Virus record (IMG/VR): IMGVR_UViG_3300026549_000036
DNA: 64,000 nucleotides
Reading direction: 5' to 3' (one strand)
Origin: a virus
Lineage: Duplodnaviria; Caudoviricetes
The position numbers were made by a program, and so were the translations under genes. The notes under the pieces were generated by a model, which was given only the letters and a program-made list of their open reading frames with translations, did not search any database and had not been told where the DNA came from. Shown in pieces: positions 7,123-33,570 of the stretch. Every line of letters starts with the position of its first letter. Positions within the stretch are counted from its first letter, which is position 1.

Positions 7123-7860
7123 ATGAAAACTATTAGACGTGGTGTATTTGAAACAAACTCTAGCACAACACACTGTGCTACCTACACAAAAACATACAAG
7201 CATATCGCAGATATCCCGTTGCGAGATAAAAAGGAATTTCCTACACTCAATGCTGACGGAACATTGGATGTTGAACTGTTCGTTTATTGGGATATGGAAG
7301 TTCGTGAAAGGGATGACATTGACCTTTCAAGTGTAAAGACAATTATTGAGTATCTTGCTGCTCACGCAGTTTTCTCTTGTCACGAAACGCTGTGGAGTAG
7401 AAAGAATAATGAAGTAATTTATCATTATAAAGATAACCACGCAAATCTGGTTCGTGATGTACAGAAAGCTTATCAAACAGTTGGATTGAAAGCTCCGACT
7501 GATGTTCGCCCATATTTCCTGGACATCGGTGATAACAAGATTTACATTACTGAAGACAACATAAACAAGTGGTTCTTCCCATTTGAAGAATACCCTTGGT
7601 TTGACAAGAAATCAGAATGGGATAAGTATATTAAGAAGACCCTTAAGAACACTCCTGATGCAGTTAATTGGCCTTATGCTAAGCACTTCATTGGAATGTG
7701 TGGTAATGATTTGTGTAGTTCTAGTTATGAATCCGCAACCCAGTATTATGACGATATGGCTCACGGTTGGGATGGACGTGACGATGAAAGCGAAGAAGAT
7801 AACATAACAACCAATGATATGCTTACTAGACAGATGTCATTGAGCTTCTATCATACTTAA
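7123..7860 (+). CDS. Phage protein with N-terminal IRRGVFETNSS(T/S)TH motif
   Basis: Recognisable N-terminal motif, recalled as often lying near phage radical SAM genes, as it does here. Confidence 0.7.
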   Translation: MKTIRRGVFETNSSTTHCATYTKTYKHIADIPLRDKKEFPTLNADGTLDVELFVYWDMEVRERDDIDLSSVKTIIEYLAAHAVFSCHETLWSRKNNEVIYHYKDNHANLVRDVQKAYQTVGLKAPTDVRPYFLDIGDNKIYITEDNINKWFFPFEEYPWFDKKSEWDKYIKKTLKNTPDAVNWPYAKHFIGMCGNDLCSSSYESATQYYDDMAHGWDGRDDESEEDNITTNDMLTRQMSLSFYHT

Positions 7861-7869
7861 GGAGAAATT

Positions 7870-8340
7870 ATGAATAAGTTAATTATTGACGATATGCCAG
7901 AATTGTATGCTAAATTGAAGCCATACATTGAGTATCTTGAAGGTCTTGGATTTTATCCTTCCAGAACAGATTTCAGTTATTTCAATCCTGGAGATGACGA
8001 TAACTATGAATACTTCAATGGTTGGAACTATAAGCGTCAAGATACAACTGCGTCAGATGGTTATCGTGAAGACTGGGTTGTGGATTTGGCAAGCTATACA
8101 AAAGAACCAAAGGTTGAAGTTTATACTCACAAAATCATAAAAGCACCGAAGTATTATTTCTGTGGAAAAGATACTGGTTATCCATATATCATCCAGAACC
8201 CAAATGAACAGGGTCATTATGACTCAAAGATTGTGGATAACATAAAAGACTTCAAAAAAGAAATTGGTAAGTATTTGAAGTTGATTAAAACATTTCAAGA
8301 AAAGGTAAAGAAGCATGAATTGGAAAAAGACTTCACCTAG
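7870..8340 (+). CDS. DF-tail family protein
   Basis: Ends KVKKHELEKDFT. Confidence 0.75.
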   Translation: MNKLIIDDMPELYAKLKPYIEYLEGLGFYPSRTDFSYFNPGDDDNYEYFNGWNYKRQDTTASDGYREDWVVDLASYTKEPKVEVYTHKIIKAPKYYFCGKDTGYPYIIQNPNEQGHYDSKIVDNIKDFKKEIGKYLKLIKTFQEKVKKHELEKDFT

Positions 8341-8785
8341 CATTATTGCGAAATATGACAATGGTAATCACCTGGTTACTTTGTTCTCAGATGGAACAAA
8401 GATAAAGGAAACTATTAACCCTGACGATGACCATTTCACATACGAATTCCCAGAATCGTTTGATTTGAAAATCACAGATTACTGTGATGCTGGTTGTGCT
8501 TATTGCTTCGTTCCTGGTACAATAGTTAAAACTGAATTGGGAAATGAAAAAATTGAAACTTTAAAAATTGGAGATTATGTTTGGTCTTATAATTGTGAAA
8601 CCAATCAAAAAGAATTAAAACAAATTAAAAAACTATATAAACATGATGTAAATGAAAAAATTTATAAGTTTACATTAGAAAATGGAAAAGTATTTTGTTG
8701 TACGAGTAACCATAAAATTTACACTAATAATGGTGTAAAAATGGCGAAAGATATAATAGCTGAAGATGAACTTCTTAATTTCTAA
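8315..8785 (+). CDS. Radical SAM protein N-extein + split intein N-fragment
   Basis: ...ITDYCDAGCAY|CFVPGT (intein Cys1 at 8504); block B TSNH; stop after a 93-aa IntN. Confidence 0.9.
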   Translation: MNWKKTSPSIIAKYDNGNHLVTLFSDGTKIKETINPDDDHFTYEFPESFDLKITDYCDAGCAYCFVPGTIVKTELGNEKIETLKIGDYVWSYNCETNQKELKQIKKLYKHDVNEKIYKFTLENGKVFCCTSNHKIYTNNGVKMAKDIIAEDELLNF

Positions 8786-8789
8786 TTAT

Positions 8790-8797
8790 TATAAATA
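8790..8797 (+). promoter_or_regulatory. T4-type late promoter
   Basis: TATAAATA upstream of the HNH gene. Confidence 0.7.
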
Positions 8798-8909
8798 TAA
8801 TAATAGGATAGGTGGAAGCATCTTATTAAGAATTTAATAATACCAACAGATGATACTATAAAGGCTTCCACCTTATCGTCTGTTGGTATTTTTTGTTAGG
8901 TGGAAGCTA

Positions 8910-9935
8910 ATGAAATTAAAAATAATAAATTGTAAAATTTGTAATAAAGAATTTAGGACAAAATCAAAAGACATTTGTTACGATTGTGCTTATAAGAATA
9001 CATTTTTTGATAAAAACTGTATAAAATGTGGTAAACCTTTTAAAGGAACTAGATTACAAAAACAATGTGAAGAATGTAGAACTAATGCTCATAAAAATTC
9101 TACATTTAAAAATACACATACAGTTACTTGTATATGTAAAACTTGTGGAAAAATTATTAGTAAAACTACTAAAGTTAATTGTGGAAAAATAAAAAATGAT
9201 GTAATTTGTAATGATAGAAACTGTAAAGAATGTAAATCTAAAATTTTATCTGAACATTTAAAATTGAAAAATCCTAATAAATTATCTAAACAGTTTAATA
9301 GTATAGATGATTATAATAAATCAAAAATAGAACAACAAGTTTTAAAACATAAAAAGATTCTTAACGAAAATTTTGAATTATTGGAAGAACTGCGTAAAAT
9401 TGACCCTACTGCTGATTTTAAATATGAAGACCCATATATAGAAAAACAATCTTTACTTATGAGATTAAACAATCCTATGTTTAATGATGAAACAAAACTT
9501 CAAGCAAAACAAACTTTAAAAGAAAGAATAGAAAGGGGTTTAATCGTAATATCAGCAAAAAACAGAAAAACTTATACTGGTTGTAGCAGATCAATACAAA
9601 ATTATTTAAGAATTGAACTTTCAAAATGGAAACATAAGTTATTAACTGAACATAATTATACTTGTGAACTGTGTGGTAAAACTGGTGGGGATTTACATAT
9701 ACATCATACAACCCCATTTAGAGAAATTTTAAAAATGATTTGTGATGAATTAAATCTTAAATATGAAGATCTAAAACAAATAAAACATTTAGACGAAAAC
9801 TATTGCAAAATAAAGGAAAAATTACTAAATTATCATTATACACACGAATGCGGTATTGTAGTTTGCCCCAGTTGTCATTCTAAAATTGATGAACATTATC
9901 ACTTGGAGAAAAAATATGAAAATACGGAAAATTGA
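8910..9935 (+). mobile_element. Free-standing HNH homing endonuclease gene between the split-intein halves
   Basis: Multiple N-terminal CxxC zinc ribbons; C-terminal YTCELCG...HIHH...CPSCH; very AT-rich. Confidence 0.85.
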
Positions 9936-10794
9936 AACTTTTGATTATGAAGGACCCGTTTATAATATAGAAGTTGAACAAAATCATAATTATTATGTTG
10001 AAGATGTATTAGTATCAAACTGTCACGAAAATTCTACAAAGAAAGGCGAACACGCAGATCTTAAATTGTTAATGCCAATGTTGCGTTCTTGTTTACCAGG
10101 AACTGAAATTGCTATCGGTGGTGGAAATGCTTTGGAACATCCATCTTTGTGGGTTTTGGTCGGTAAAATGAAAGAAAATGGACTGATTCCCTCTATCACA
10201 GTTAACCAAAAACATTTACAGAAATACTTTCAGTTAATCAAAACCCTGGACTTCGCAGGAATTGGTGTTTCCTTGACAGATCCTTCAAACAAGAAGGATA
10301 TGCGTTTGATTGACGAACTGGGCAGTAACGTCGTAATACACACGATTGCTGGCGTTTTAACTCCCAAGGACTATTCTGTATTGAGAGATAGAAAAGTTCT
10401 AATTCTCGGTTACAAGGATATCAGACGCGGACATGATAATTTGTCTAAACATACTGCTGAAATTCAAGCAAACATTGAACAACTGAAAAAAGATTTGCCA
10501 ATGATTGCTAAAAACGCAAGAGCACTTTCTTTTGATTGTTTGGCTCTAAAGCAGTTGAATCCAAAGGAATGTTTGGGAATGACTGATGAAGAATTCGCAA
10601 ACATTTATCAGGGCGATGACTACGAAATGTTTGACAAAGACGGAAATTTGACAGTTGGAACAATGTTTATTGACGCTGTTAAAATGGAAATTGCTAGAAG
10701 TAGTACTGCTCAAATGGATAAAAGATATAAATTCACTGGTAGTGAAAAGATAAGTGAACTGTTAGCAAAAAGCTGCGAAGGTTATGGAAAATAA
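9916..10794 (+). CDS. Split intein C-fragment + radical SAM C-extein
   Basis: MKIRKIE...VYNIEVEQNHNYYVEDVLVSN|CHENS; GGG motif EIAIGGGN; GGAG RBS. Confidence 0.9.
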   Translation: MKIRKIETFDYEGPVYNIEVEQNHNYYVEDVLVSNCHENSTKKGEHADLKLLMPMLRSCLPGTEIAIGGGNALEHPSLWVLVGKMKENGLIPSITVNQKHLQKYFQLIKTLDFAGIGVSLTDPSNKKDMRLIDELGSNVVIHTIAGVLTPKDYSVLRDRKVLILGYKDIRRGHDNLSKHTAEIQANIEQLKKDLPMIAKNARALSFDCLALKQLNPKECLGMTDEEFANIYQGDDYEMFDKDGNLTVGTMFIDAVKMEIARSSTAQMDKRYKFTGSEKISELLAKSCEGYGK

Positions 10795-13700
10795 TACTAT
10801 CAAAATCAGATGTAGTGTTAGAAGTAACTTGTTTAAAAGACTTGGCGAACTAGCAGGTTGTACTTATCTTGGAAAGTACAAATTCTACAAATTCTTTGAA
10901 ATGGTAAACCCTGACGATGTAACCAAGTATATGGAACAACACATAACTACACAGTTAACTTATTATGAAGCTTGCTGTGAATTTTGGTTGTATAAAATGT
11001 TCGGCTGGACAGAATATGACGAAGAAAAGTACGCCGAGTTATTGGAAATGCCAATACTGGATTTGTACGATAAACTAAGTTTAGCTTATAAGAAATACCT
11101 GGAAAAAGAAAAATTGGAAAGTATTAAAGAGGATTTTTAATGATTGAAAATCACTTTGATTATAACATAACTAGAGAGAAAATCACAAAAGCATTTGATG
11201 TCAAGCCAGGACATCCTGCTTATGCTCCAATTTGTGCTTTTTTAGATTATTACGATAAAGAAATTAGGGAACAGTATGCTATGAAACGAAACTTGGAAAT
11301 GGGGTACTGGAATTTCATCTCTAAGTATGTTTATAACAAACTATTAAAGTTTGAATACGATACTACTGATTTTGCTAAATTCAAAGCTATGAGTGAACAA
11401 GAACTTGAGGCCTTTCGTGATATGCGATTGAAAGAATTTATGGCTGAACGAAGACTTGACAAAATGAAAGAGGATTTCTAATGGTTTATGTTTGGATAAG
11501 TACAGATGAAAAAACTATCATTAGACAAATGAAAGGAAATACTTATAATGTTATTAGTATAGACCAGAAGAATGTTGATGATAAAGCAACTGAATATACT
11601 TTTGTACTTGAGTCCGATGAAAATGAAAGATGTTCTTTCACTTTTACATTTAGGAGTAAGGGTGAAGGCAAATATAATCTGTATTTCTTCAGCATTGTAA
11701 GTCCACAAAAATCTATTACAACTGGAACTACCCATCACAATAAAAATGTTGGTGAAGATTTTGGTGATTGGATGAACGAAGAAGTAAAATCACTAAAAGG
11801 AATTATTGAAAAGAAATACAAAGAAAGTGGTAGAATTAACGAACTGAAAGAGGATTTCTAATGTTAAGTACTCTTGAAAAGATTGTATTACGAAAAATTG
11901 AATACTTTTGTTCTGGTGAATACTACAATTTTGATAAAAGATTTAAGTTTATTAAAATTGTAAATGAAACCATAACACCTGAAGAAGCCAATGAATTTCA
12001 TAAACAGAATTTGGGGTTATTGTGGAATGAAGCATGTTCTTTGTTAATAGTTCAAAAAGTACTTGGTATTGAAAATTTTGATGAACAGAAATATAATGAA
12101 ATTCTTGATTGTTCACCAGAAAATTTGTATGAAAAATTTAAGATTGGTTTAAAACGATTTCGTCTTACAAAAAAGATGGATAAAATAAATGAGGATTTCT
12201 AATGGCTGAGAAAAAAGAGTATTTACCTGAACTAATGAAGTTAATAAAGAAGTATGGTTTGACTTTTGAAGACGAACCTGGTTCAGATTACATACGAATT
12301 AACCTTCCTAATTTAATTGTTCCAGATGATAGTTTTGCGGACTTGGATAGAGAAGATGATGAGTTAATTTATTATAAAGAACTCTCATTATCTTATGATG
12401 CAGAAACTAATACCAGTCATATAGAATTTGTTGGTGATGGTTATAATCGTACTGGTTGTTTAAGTGGCTTGAAGAAGTTTGAAACTGTAGTTAAGAAACT
12501 AATTAAAGTTGCAGATGTGTATAATTCAATGAACAAGCAGTTGAAAAGTAAGGTTAAAGAAATTGGTATTGCGGAGGACTTCTAATGGTTTACATTTGGG
12601 CAGCTAATAAATCTAAAACGATTATCAAACAACTTAATGGTTCTACATTTAGACTGGATGAACTTGTTCAAGTACAAATTGATGCGTTTACTCAAAATTT
12701 AACTTTCACTTTTGTCACAGACGAGAATGACAAATACACATTTGATTTGGATGTAAAAGTAGACCACGATGAAAGATGCTCTTTGCGTTATTTTGGAATA
12801 ACAAGTCCACAAAAACATTTCGCTACTGGAATTAACGGTATGAAAGGTAAAAATACAATGGAAGATTTGAACAAATTTATAAATTCTCAGTTAAATCCAA
12901 TTAGAGATGTGTTTGATAAAAAGTTTAAAGAAGAATGTAAGTTAAAAGGCATTGAAAAGGATTTTGACTAATGACCAGAGATGAATACGAAGAAGTCTGT
13001 AAAAAATTTCCAGATTATCTTAATTTGACTGGTAGTGGTACTTGTTATATTAAAGGTGCTGCCACATTTGGTTTATACGAAGTAACAGATATTATTTACG
13101 AAGGTTGTGTTTTAGATGATAAAGTTATTGGTAAAGTTTGGTATAAGTGTTATAGTCCAGATAAAAAGACAATACAAACTAGGTCAAAAATTTGTTATAA
13201 TGCCAATACTAAAGAAGAATTTGAAAAGAAAATACAAGAATTTATAGAAAATTACAAAAAAGTTCAAGTTAAATTGAAACAAATAAATCTAAACAAGGAT
13301 TTTGAATAATGGGAATACCAATGCGGCGTGTGAAAAATAAACCAGCATTTACTTGTTATCCATATACAGAATTGAACTGGGTTTATGATTATTCATTGAA
13401 TAGTCTTGAACGAAAAATGTACTTTCATTTTATGAAGAGGTTAATGCCAATTTGTGAAGAACATGTCAGTGAATGGACTGATATGTTTGATTGTTTTGAC
13501 CCGTTCGGATCTGATTTAGAGATTGTTGTTTGGCGAGTAGTTATTCTATTGGGATATAAACCTTGGAACCAGTATTATTATGCTAAAATGGATGACGATA
13601 CTTTGTTCGCAATTTTAAACAAACGAATCAAAGAATTTAAAGCACAGCAGAAAGTAAAAAATATGGAGGCAGATTTTGAGTGAGCCTTGGATAAGTTCAA

Positions 13701-15759: not shown

Positions 15760-16012
15760 GATAAAATTTTATTACGATGACGGCACAGTTTCACACGATT
15801 TAATAGAATGTGAAAATCCGACCAAATGGGAAGGAAATAATGTTTTAACGAATATGGCGAAAAGAGCAAAGTTTGAAACTAATGCGTTTAAGCATAAAAT
15901 TGTAAAGATTGAAAAGAAATGTGTGCTGGCTTGTAAAACAAAGAATTTCAAACAACATAGCTGGTGTTCCGGTGATGGTTATGTTTGGCCTGCAGAATGG
16001 TGGAAAATGTGA
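15749..16012 (+). CDS. Hypothetical protein
   Basis: MLFEIKFYYDDG..., overlapping the end of the previous gene. Confidence 0.6.
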   Translation: MLFEIKFYYDDGTVSHDLIECENPTKWEGNNVLTNMAKRAKFETNAFKHKIVKIEKKCVLACKTKNFKQHSWCSGDGYVWPAEWWKM

Positions 16013-16407
16013 AACGAAGTACTTTTGAACAATATGTAACAGAATACTGTGAGGATTTGGCACTGAAAGAAAATTCTCACCAATACAAGCGTTGTAAACA
16101 TGCTTGTGTTCTGACATATAATGATGCCATCATTTCAAGTGGTGTAAATTCAAAACTGTTCAACGATTTTACGAAACAGTACAATGATTTGAAGACATTA
16201 CACGCAGAACCTGTTGCGATTATGAGAGCGATGAAACACCACAGCAAGATTATTCATAAATGCGAACTGTGGGTTTGTCGCAACAATGAGATTTCAAAAG
16301 AAAGTCGCCCGTGCCCGATGTGTATGAGAATTATTAAGGGATTTGGAATTAAACGAATTCATTACACAACTGGTGCTGGCGAATGGAAAGAAGAAACTTT
16401 AGAATAA
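16009..16407 (+). CDS. Zinc-dependent cytidine/dCMP deaminase-superfamily protein
   Basis: HAE and SRPCPMC motifs. Confidence 0.85.
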   Translation: MKRSTFEQYVTEYCEDLALKENSHQYKRCKHACVLTYNDAIISSGVNSKLFNDFTKQYNDLKTLHAEPVAIMRAMKHHSKIIHKCELWVCRNNEISKESRPCPMCMRIIKGFGIKRIHYTTGAGEWKEETLE

Positions 16408-31914: not shown

Positions 31915-32448
31915 AATTCTGTTGCTAGGGATTTCCCTAGCTGTTTCTGCGAGTGCAGTAGAAAGGTCAAACACTTTTTTCTTATTGCCCTCGTCAATTC
32001 AGCAACAAATTATTATATTTGAAAATAAGAAGCCAATAAAACCGCGAATGTTCTATATCACCCCAGATGTGTATGGAATTTTTCACGAATACTTCTATGA
32101 TACTAAAACTGAAAAATGTTGGTGGAATAAATACAAACTAACAATTTATTTTTAAGTTGGAAGTATGAACCAATACGAATACCAGTACGAATTAAGAAAA
32201 TTATTACAGTTCCTATACGATGCTATGATTAAGAAAGACGAAACTAGAATAAAGGAATTGAAAGATAAAATAGAATTTTTGTATAGAACACAAGGTTTAA
32301 ATGATGAATAGTTTATAAATATAATGATAAATTCGTGGTAGTCTTTATCATTAAATATAGAGTTTAATAAACCTTAATTAAGGTTAATGCTATACAAGGA
32401 CTACCACAATACTTGTATAGCATTTTTTTCATAATATGTGGTAGTCTT

Positions 32449-33570
32449 ATGAATAAATTTGAAATTATAGATTTAGCTGTAAATGATGCAGAAGTTTTTA
32501 AAACTAAATGCGAAAATAAAGAAATAAGAAATGTAAAAATAAGAATACATTGTATAGAATGTAATAAAATTGTTGAAAAATGGCCTGATGTAAGAAGATT
32601 TCATAATTGGTTTTATTGTCCTAAATGTTCTACTAAATTATATCGTATTAGAACTTGGGGTTCATTAGACAAATATAATGAACACATGAAAAAAGAAAGA
32701 GAAAATACATTAATTGCTAAATATGGTTCACTTAAAAAAGCACAAGAAATAAGATTAGAAAATCAAAGAAAATATAATAGAAAAGTTCATGGATGTGATT
32801 ATTATTTTCAAACAACTGAATTTAAAAATAAATTAGAAAATAAATTAACTGAAATGAATAATGGAATAAAAACAACTAATGTTTCACAAATAAAAGAAAT
32901 TCGTAATAAAATTAAAGAAACAAATAAAGAAAAATATGGCTGTGAAGAATATATGCAAAGTTTAGATTTTAAAAATAAAACTATTGCAACTTCAAAAAGT
33001 AAATATAATACAGATAGTCCAAATTCAGCAAAAATAGTTAAAAAGCATAAAGAAGATTCTGTATTTTTGAAATATGGTGTTACTAATGTTAATCAATTAA
33101 AAGAAGTAAGAGAAAAAATTTATAAAACTTGTATGGAAAGATATGGTAAATTATGGAATACTTATAAATACAAGTACGATAATATAAAATTTGATAGTGG
33201 TTGGGAATTAATTTATTATATTTGGTTAAAAGACCACGATATAAATTTTAAATACCATCCAAAAATAAATTTTGATTACATTGATGAAAATGGTAAAAAT
33301 TCAAAATATGAACCAGATTTTTTAATAGATAACAAATTATATGAAATAAAAGGAGACCATTTCTTCAATGAACAAAAACAATTAATAAATCCATACGATA
33401 AAAATAAACCATTATGTTTAAAAAAACAACAATGTATGATAGACAATGGCGTTAAAATTTTAACAAGTATTGATTTGAAAGATAGTTTTGATTATTTTAA
33501 TACATTAAATTTAAATTTATCTAGTTTTAGAGTGAAAAGAGGAAAAAATGAAAATAACATTATTAAATGA
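32449..33570 (+). mobile_element. Putative homing endonuclease (KYG repeats + C-terminal PD-(D/E)XK domain)
   Basis: KETNKEKYG-type repeats; FDSGWE...YEPDF...YEIKG; late promoter TATAAATA at 32314; adjacent to thyX. Confidence 0.8.

Follow-up and report, generated by a model that had tools for sequence, protein, structure and literature searches.

The 64,000-nt stretch of viral DNA analysed here (Caudoviricetes; IMG/VR virus record IMGVR_UViG_3300026549_000036), called the window in the following, contains a free-standing homing endonuclease gene between the two halves of a split intein in a radical-SAM gene. This endonuclease gene is preceded by a leader, which starts at position 8790 and ends with the start codon at 8910-8912. 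Judged from its sequence, the leader is a cis-regulatory RNA belonging to the mobile homing-endonuclease cassette. Comparison with sister leaders has shown that three copies of a short motif in it are under selection and change together, while the layout stays fixed. A selected RNA structure, in which stems covary and loops are fixed, is supported by the alignment of the homologous leaders. Furthermore, we propose that the leader is an RNA switch of Shine-Dalgarno (SD) sequence, anti-SD and SD mimic, which would be built from loop-loop contacts on a terminator-like hairpin. We consider this explanation probable, although with considerable reserve. The leader consists of the following elements:

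8790-8797, plus strand: TATAAATA box, a T4-type late-promoter motif, 12 nt 5' of motif copy 1 and invariant across the homologous leaders.
8801-8828, plus strand: hairpin 1, found in the folds, with 9 bp and a G-C pair closing the heptaloop GUGGAAG; it displays copy 1.
8839-8855 paired with 8874-8890, plus strand: hairpin 2, with a 17-bp stem and an 18-nt loop, followed by the U run UUUUUUGUU.
8889-8897, plus strand: U tract directly 3' of hairpin 2; the T run is kept in all leaders.
8891-8899 paired with 8907-8915, plus strand: hairpin 3, the translation initiation region, found in single-sequence and consensus folds.

Copies 1 and 3 of the motif AGGTGGAAGC are located at 8810-8819 and 8898-8907, their complement GCTTCCACCT (copy 2) at 8864-8873. 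A sequence-only reading of this DNA had reported the box, the three copies, hairpins 1 and 2 and the ATG at 8910, and had described loop 2 as holding the exact complement of copies 1 and 3. All of these coordinates proved right by sequence and fold, and the complement at 8864-8873 is an exact 10-mer. No further match to AGGTGGAAGC or its complement was detected in the 64-kb window with one mismatch permitted. Triples consisting of an 8-mer, its reverse complement and the same 8-mer again occur about zero times in the block-shuffled window; for the 210-kb relative G001 a chance estimate gave 0.05.

Minimum free energy folding of 8786-8930 (145 nt) recovered hairpin 1 (8801-8828) and hairpin 2 (8839-8890, with its 17-bp stem and U tract) as previously described; the fold has a z value of -4.7, and none of 200 shuffles was as stable. 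Hairpin 3 is an addition of the present analysis to these two. The U tract forms its 5' arm and the AUG (8910-8912) lies in its 3' arm, with the heptaloop GUGGAAG between them and a stability of -5.0 kcal/mol. The stem of hairpin 1 is weak and A-U-rich (-5.6 kcal/mol). Hairpin 2 reaches -23.9 kcal/mol, and its loop terminates in copy 2 (GCUUCCACCU, 8864-8873), the anti-SD. Hairpins 1 and 3 display one and the same heptaloop on the top UAG[GUGGAAG]C, and hairpin 2 displays the complement CUUCCAC. Loop-loop pairing between the complementary heptaloops GUGGAAG and CUUCCAC is putative, from sequence complementarity alone. The SD AGGUGG is situated within copy 3 (8898-8907), partly inside the heptaloop of hairpin 3, and the AUG is found in the weak stem. 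For the SD to be strongly paired, the loop of hairpin 2 would be required, in a pseudoknot or kissing contact. A search of the leader against Rfam gave no family match, only sub-threshold chance matches (mir-2002, U7). A small open reading frame (ORF) after copy 1 was considered and rejected for lack of a start codon; no leader ORF follows copy 1, as read from the sequence. An AU palindrome around the box (8785-8804) was considered as an element and rejected, since it is not conserved.

By its motif and distribution the TATAAATA box fits a predicted late promoter. With 10 copies in the window against 7.2 expected, it is not over-represented by raw count. All 10 copies are on the coding strand and none on the other (18 vs 3 in G001), and 6 of the 10 fall within the 8.7% of the window outside ORFs. 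This strand-specific and intergenic concentration in the window and G001 suggests the use of T4-type late promoters by this giant phage.

Homologous endonucleases were identified by protein search at 76, 71, 70, 68, 66 and 46% identity. Those with upstream sequence on the contig are located between intein halves, behind a leader of ~124-127 nt. The homologous set comprises seven leader sequences, six of them distinct and five full-length, with endonucleases 76-46% identical; the contig of L012 starts within the leader. The box, the three hairpins, the motif cores (GTGGAAG / CTTCCAC) and the spacing are kept in all homologous leaders, with 53-55 nt from copy 1 to copy 2, 32-36 nt from copy 2 to copy 3, and the core ending 3 nt before the ATG. 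Other leader positions differ in L011 (46% protein identity), yet this leader too has the invariant box, copy 1, copy 2 core CTTCCACC, copy 3 core GTGGAAG and distance from copy 3 to the ATG. L012 (1-1118) has an intact leader, but loss of one base in a T run divides its endonuclease ORF, for which two genes were called; decay of the homing endonuclease gene or an error of assembly could account for this.

Covariation was measured on an alignment fitted to a covariance model built from the same sequences, and this fit somewhat favours structure. In the model-fitted alignment 96.9% of the cells are paired, compared with 34-57% when the partners were slid by 1-3 columns. Pairs changed on both sides numbered 10, against 1-2 in the slid controls, and the observed values were reached by none of 500 shuffles. 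Compensatory pairs are present in all three helices, with three in hairpin 1 and four changed on both sides in hairpin 3. For L011 the stem of hairpin 2 is of wholly different sequence (11 bp), with the pairing retained. Across the window, L006 and L007, two positions of hairpin 2 run from C-G via U.G to U-A and from A-U via G.U to G-C. These G.U intermediates in the stems point to selection on RNA rather than on DNA. A covariance model across leaders had been named as a check in the sequence-only reading, and its outcome was positive: the stems covary and the loops are unchanged.

These data bear on the explanation that the repeats have no regulatory meaning and are a by-product of recombination or duplication in an AT-rich mobile element. 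Homing endonuclease cassettes recombine often, and the conservation among the closest relatives could reflect recent common descent. However, at 46% protein identity the motifs show no change, whereas the stems have been rewritten and still pair. In addition, independent leaders repeat the layout with other k-mers at a chance expectation of ~0. We regard an absence of regulatory meaning as extremely improbable.

The leaders with other k-mers and the genes behind them are as follows:

32314-32451, plus strand: sister leader with the k-mer GTGGTAGTC, copies at 32335 and 32438, complement at 32399.
32449-33570, plus strand: DUF7487 endonuclease gene behind this sister leader and upstream of thyX, unrelated to the HNH-like gene.
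G001 15888-16023, minus strand: sister leader L028 with the k-mer TGGAAGGC, ahead of a GIY-YIG endonuclease gene.

In the leader at 32314-32451, GTGGTAGTC comes 13 nt after the box and occupies the loop of a hairpin of 10 bp; a second hairpin, of 13 bp and with GACTACCAC in its loop, precedes a T run. The other GTGGTAGTC lies 2 nt before the ATG, and a weak stem contains the AUG. A scan of the window and the whole of G001 (274 kb) for box-preceded triples gave exactly one more, L028, and about zero in shuffles. In both sister leaders the three copies match one another; the box precedes them by 13 nt, and the ATG follows after 2-4 nt. With L041, a 52%-identical GIY-YIG relative from another virus, loop 1 (GTGGTTA) and loop 2 (TAACCAC) are complementary and the third copy is partial. 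The genes downstream of the three leader types (HNH-like, DUF7487 and GIY-YIG) are mutually unrelated. As unrelated endonuclease families stand behind differing k-mers, the three copies have changed in concert. Every leader has an SD-like k-mer, which fits a copy 3 that has to function as the SD.

The same leaders were examined regarding a DNA operator, which the sequence-only reading had offered as an alternative. The three 10-bp copies (direct, inverted, direct) would then be double-stranded DNA sites for a repressor, possibly the endonuclease. Autorepression of I-TevI via a homing-site-like operator is documented (PMC2988022). The sites follow closely on the promoter box at fairly constant spacing, and different endonucleases carry different k-mers. 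In contrast, the 10-mer matched the reconstructed homing site at 6/10 positions at best, which is the modal value of random 120-nt pieces, and one layout with similar SD-like k-mers in three unrelated nuclease families is unexpected for differing specificities. The constant place of copy 3, 2-4 nt ahead of the ATG, is a translational one. The copies also sit exactly in the loops of covarying stems with G.U intermediates, which are tolerated by RNA alone. An operator is disfavoured by these findings and is considered very unlikely.

In the proposed RNA switch, hairpin 3 would be the true initiation region. Hairpin 1, a near-copy of the top of hairpin 3, would act as SD mimic (anti-anti-SD), and the long, terminator-like hairpin 2 would carry the anti-SD in its large loop. 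Loop 2 could pair with one partner only at a time. Its pairing with the initiation region, by a 7-bp kissing contact or an up to 10-bp pseudoknot, would hide the SD and block translation of the endonuclease, and its pairing with loop 1 would leave the SD free. Hairpin 2 with the U tract would probably end part of the transcripts ahead of the endonuclease gene. The net effect would be low or timed endonuclease expression and insulation of the gene from the split host gene. Candidate triggers may be a 5'-end difference between late and read-through transcripts, the folding order during transcription, or a protein factor.

The leader contains the segments of such an SD, anti-SD and anti-anti-SD system as exact 10-mers with mutually exclusive complementarity and the SD in the last position. 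A stability of -17.2 kcal/mol was calculated for the 10-mer duplex, compared with -5.6 kcal/mol for hairpin 1 and -5.0 kcal/mol for hairpin 3; opening of the motif copies costs 2-5 kcal/mol. Within each leader the duplexes of copies 1:2 and 2:3 are near-isoenergetic, with the exceptions of L011 (2:3 with 21 bp and -30 kcal/mol) and L008 (2:3 weaker). The usual pseudoknot penalty is, by our estimate, 8-10 kcal/mol. With this penalty both paired states would be a few kcal/mol below the three-hairpin state and near-equal, which would give a bistable RNA. The sequence-only reading had proposed that loop 2 pairs either with loop 1 or with the initiation region and acts as a switch. This proposal is supported in part: the complementary copies change together in the predicted manner and the stems covary around fixed loops; the physical pairing is inferred.

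Two homologous leaders depart from the common pattern near the start codon. For L011 (2449-2510) the anti-SD/SD helix extends to 21 bp over the AUG and rivals the 11-bp hairpin 2. This predicted 21-bp helix is a nested alternative fold and not a pseudoknot. In L008 a G-to-T change in copy 2 weakens the pairing of copies 2:3 to 7 bp. A 3-nt deletion beside copy 3 of the same leader (L008:2501-2515) drops the AG of the SD and makes an in-frame ATG 12 nt upstream.

The copy 2:3 pairing of L011, with its 21 bp over the AUG at -30 kcal/mol, would also be expected for simple masking of the ribosome-binding site (RBS). Loop 2 would then pair with the SD and AUG, and hairpin 1 would be a duplicated initiation hairpin with another role, without competition for loop 2. 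RBS sequestration is documented for I-TevI/II/III and segB of T4 and for Aeh1 mobE (PMC2988022). Hairpin 1, which would be located at the extreme 5' end of the late transcript, might be a 5'-end stabiliser of the late mRNA; a 3'-end structure of the upstream mRNA was considered as well. However, copy 1 is invariant down to 46% protein identity, whereas neighbouring leader bases diverge, and in three to four leader types the sequence of loop 1 follows that of loop 2 exactly. Moreover, the pairing of copies 1:2 (9-10 bp) is better kept than that of copies 2:3 (7-10 bp in L008 and L007, partial in L041). Simple masking is thus regarded as unlikely, and the other roles of hairpin 1 are given the same small chance.

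Regarding transcription, the leader could alternatively serve as a source of a small RNA or as an attenuator. Transcription from the late box would end at hairpin 2 and yield a two-hairpin RNA of ~90 nt, which would act as anti-SD in trans or be an attenuated leader, and the contact of loops 1 and 2 would tune termination. The succession of promoter box, stable hairpin and U run is present in all leader types, with the stable stem directly before the U run, and the contact of loops 1 and 2 could form ahead of the synthesis of the 3' arm of hairpin 2. The U tract could act as a terminator tail and would double as the 5' arm of hairpin 3. However, it is also explained as this arm of a covarying hairpin, and loops of 13-23 nt are atypical for intrinsic terminators. 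Hairpin 2 was not called by a simple consensus terminator scan, as its 18-nt loop exceeds the 8-nt limit. Furthermore, copy 1 is complementary to the loop of hairpin 2 and not to an arm, so no classical antiterminator is present. A small RNA or attenuator as the whole function appears rather unlikely.

Several points weigh against the RNA switch. The covariance model scores the sister leaders weakly, with E values of 0.013 and, for the leader at 32312, 0.84. The agreement of the leader types may thus be convergent, and the co-changing copies come from leaders of unproven common descent. Within the homologous set the motif cores never vary, and the pairing between copies is there a matter of invariance, not of covariation. 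Uncompensated changes are found at the edges: copy 3 of L007 is TGGTGGAAGT, copy 2 of L008 is TCTTCCACCT, and copy 3 of L008 is without AG. The 10-nt closed loop cannot fully pair unless hairpin 1 melts, and with an efficient terminator at this site the second, downstream half of the host gene would be deprived of transcripts. The late box lies upstream of all three elements, so that a late and a read-through transcript would not differ in these parts, and no obvious trigger is seen. In T4 transcription starts 6 nt after the late box. A start ~6 nt after the box would cost hairpin 1 1-2 pairs in this leader type. The RNA-library contigs of the locus, described below, are uninformative about transcript ends.

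Two extensions of the switch were considered and not adopted. Truncation of hairpin 1 by the late start in the T4 manner gave an ambiguous result, since with a start 6 nt after the box hairpin 1 would lose 1-2 pairs here, but about half of its pairs in both sister leaders. The second was a fourth element upstream, pairing with copy 1 in read-through RNA, which is absent in L007, L008 and the sister leaders. In the window the coding end of the N-terminal intein half (IntN), 8765-8776, can pair with copy 1 at 8814-8823 in read-through RNA (GAUG/CUUCU; CUUCU with GGAAG). For L011 a 12-bp helix of copy 1 with sequence upstream of the box could likewise form in read-through RNA.

The leader is embedded in a fractured gene with the following features:

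8315-8785, plus strand: ORF of the N-extein of a radical-SAM protein (Fe-S oxidoreductase) and IntN, from Pfam Intein_splicing/Hint, PHROG 16999 and the translation.
8910-9935, plus strand: free-standing endonuclease gene, 341 aa, with N-terminal Cys-rich zinc-ribbon repeats and a C-terminal HNH-like domain (motif by eye).
9916-10794, plus strand: ORF of the C-terminal intein half (IntC, 35 aa) and the C-extein, which begins CHENS..., from Pfam Intein_splicing.
8504-10020, plus strand: mobile insert of IntN, leader, endonuclease gene and IntC, absent from G001.

In the first ORF the codon of the intein Cys1 is at 8504, the N-extein ends ...CDAGCAY and the stop codon is at 8783-8785. The ORF of IntC and C-extein has its own RBS, GGAGA, within the 3' end of the endonuclease gene, with an overlap of 20 nt (9916-9935). 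Both exteins match one Fe-S oxidoreductase family, and the intein halves are found in separate ORFs flanking the endonuclease ORF. The split intein interrupts the radical-SAM gene inside CxxxCxxC, where the +1 Cys (10021) restores the motif as third cluster ligand. G001 (IMG/VR, 210 kb, 91-94% identical) is the nearest virus record and contains the uninterrupted gene, in which 8000-8506 of the window is joined to 10021-11200. The GC content is 21-27% in the 1.5-kb insert, compared with 33-39% in the flanks. Thus the locus has the characteristics of a fractured gene, namely flanking ORFs of intein halves, an intein-less allele (G001) and an endonuclease whose 3' end overlaps the downstream ORF.

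For the endonuclease (8910-9935) no Pfam or PHROG family match was found, and a profile search against PDB sequences was without a match. The family comprises ~1900 proteins. With an AlphaFold model (pLDDT 71.7) the best PDB matches were SciA of phage T5 and other HNH nucleases, at a weak E value of 0.11 and a Foldseek probability of 0.99. By motif and model the product is described as an HNH-like endonuclease.

RNA-library contigs at least 99% identical to 7800-11000 originate from four bovine-gut metatranscriptome studies and place the phage in the cattle gut. These contigs (depth 2-8, contigs only) cover both sides of the leader region, and none bridges ~8700-8868. Contigs from two studies end at 8684/8685; no conclusion on a transcript end or termination was drawn from this.

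Homing endonucleases require expression that is enough to spread, but not enough to harm the phage or the interrupted gene. The textbook solution is a single RBS-masking hairpin bypassed by a late promoter. The wiring proposed here would be different, as a decoy of the ribosome-binding hairpin would compete for an anti-SD loop on a terminator-like hairpin. Translational riboswitches and attenuators use platforms of SD, anti-SD and anti-anti-SD, e.g. thiM of E. coli. The leader resembles these in its segments (a motif, its reverse complement and the motif again), the last being the SD and the middle one able to pair with either of the other two. Unlike the riboswitches it has no aptamer or ligand-binding domain and no Rfam match, and the partners are in hairpin loops instead of nested helices. 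In plasmid replication control, kissing loops are used by ColE1 RNA I/II, and a loop-to-RBS pseudoknot by repZ of IncI-alpha/IncB. Complementary 7-nt hairpin loops and a loop complementary to sequence of the RBS region are common to these systems and the leader; in the plasmid systems the latter governs translation. However, the plasmid systems employ an antisense RNA in trans and their pseudoknot activates, whereas here all partners are in cis and loop 2 is expected to repress the SD.

Closer parallels are known from phages. The T-even homing endonuclease genes I-TevI/II/III and segB, together with Aeh1 mobE, are controlled by a late promoter and an RBS-sequestering hairpin, and the simpler hairpins which the sequence-only reading had named for T4 endonuclease genes are thus documented (PMC2988022). 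The present gene corresponds to them in the TATAAATA box directly upstream, the embedding in a host transcription unit, the RNA structure at the SD and AUG, and the presumed purpose of restricting endonuclease synthesis (PMC2988022). In the T-even leaders a single hairpin pairs directly with the RBS and loses its 5' arm through the late start (PMC2988022), whereas here the anti-SD is in the loop of a separate long hairpin, an SD mimic is in a third hairpin, and all of them are in the late transcripts. The anti-SD (8864-8873), with the box 66 nt upstream of it, is retained in late transcripts; because of this position the T4 late-start logic is inapplicable.

Hairpins and TATAAATA were described by Dassa et al. 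(2009; PMC2677866) in the 5' untranslated regions that precede endonuclease genes within fractured genes. As in their loci, split intein halves flank a free-standing endonuclease whose 3' end overlaps the IntC ORF, and the 5' untranslated region has a hairpin, a late-promoter motif and two conserved complementary motifs. The motifs of Dassa et al. (2009; PMC2677866) are complementary inside one stem and the endonucleases are GIY-YIG or Vsr-like, whereas an HNH-like endonuclease, a radical-SAM host gene and three copies in the loops of separate hairpins are found here. A full-text literature search for kissing-loop control of homing endonucleases gave nothing relevant. Thus, hairpin and late-promoter control of phage homing endonucleases is known; the three-loop decoy design and its reuse by unrelated genes appear new.

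The distribution of the leader was examined in relatives of the endonucleases. More distant relatives of the HNH-like endonuclease likewise occur in split inteins; there the gene overlaps the IntN ORF or follows it after 8-26 nt. The second cassette of the window, 32309-33543 including its leader, is absent from G001. Relatives of the DUF7487 endonuclease with 78, 48 and 45% identity are located upstream of thyX behind short spacers without hairpins. Covariation of the GTGGTAGTC leader type was sought in these homologues, and no such leader was present. In the case of the HNH-like and DUF7487 genes the leader is thus best assigned to the cassettes of this phage lineage, and not to the endonuclease family. 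For the GIY-YIG family the picture is less clear, as L041 keeps part of the design and L042 lacks it.

Searches with megablast and blastn of locus and leader against 50,697 phage records gave nothing relevant. The exact 10-mer pair pattern had 0 matches in IMG/VR, and the 8-mer triple pattern 3 matches there, all of them unrelated GC-rich repeats or coding sequence. Endonuclease and alignment searches for related loci in IMG/VR and JGI metagenomes identified solely distant leaderless relatives. On this distribution, the leader is read as a portable, lineage-specific module tied to endonuclease cassettes. Such an exchangeable regulatory module bears on the domestication of selfish genes in phage genomes. 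With its ~120 nt and separable parts, the leader would be an easy test system for cis kissing-loop control and possibly a designable expression switch.

A more far-reaching version of the switch is put forward tentatively, as possible but not probable. A portable toggle would have been recruited independently by HNH, DUF7487/PD-(D/E)XK-like and GIY-YIG families in one cattle-gut giant-phage lineage, with SD, anti-SD and SD mimic in three kissing loops. Termination at hairpin 2 would be coupled to translational masking, and the toggle would read the 5' end of the transcript or the folding order, not a ligand.

A third endonuclease leader of different wiring was observed in the window at 58832-58952, upstream of one further gene:

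58950-59867: DUF7487 / endonuclease-I-like ORF, downstream of the leader 58832-58952.

Loop 1 of this leader, AUAAUCUC, complements the RBS GAGAUUAU, and loop 2 (UUUCCAC) complements loop 3 (GUGGAAA). The TATAAATA box is located between stems 2 and 3; by this position late transcripts would lack the anti-SD, which corresponds to classical T4 logic. An additional TATAAATA was found at 33163 inside the DUF7487 ORF of the second cassette. It lies ~400 nt ahead of thyX, the downstream host gene, for which it may serve as an embedded promoter.

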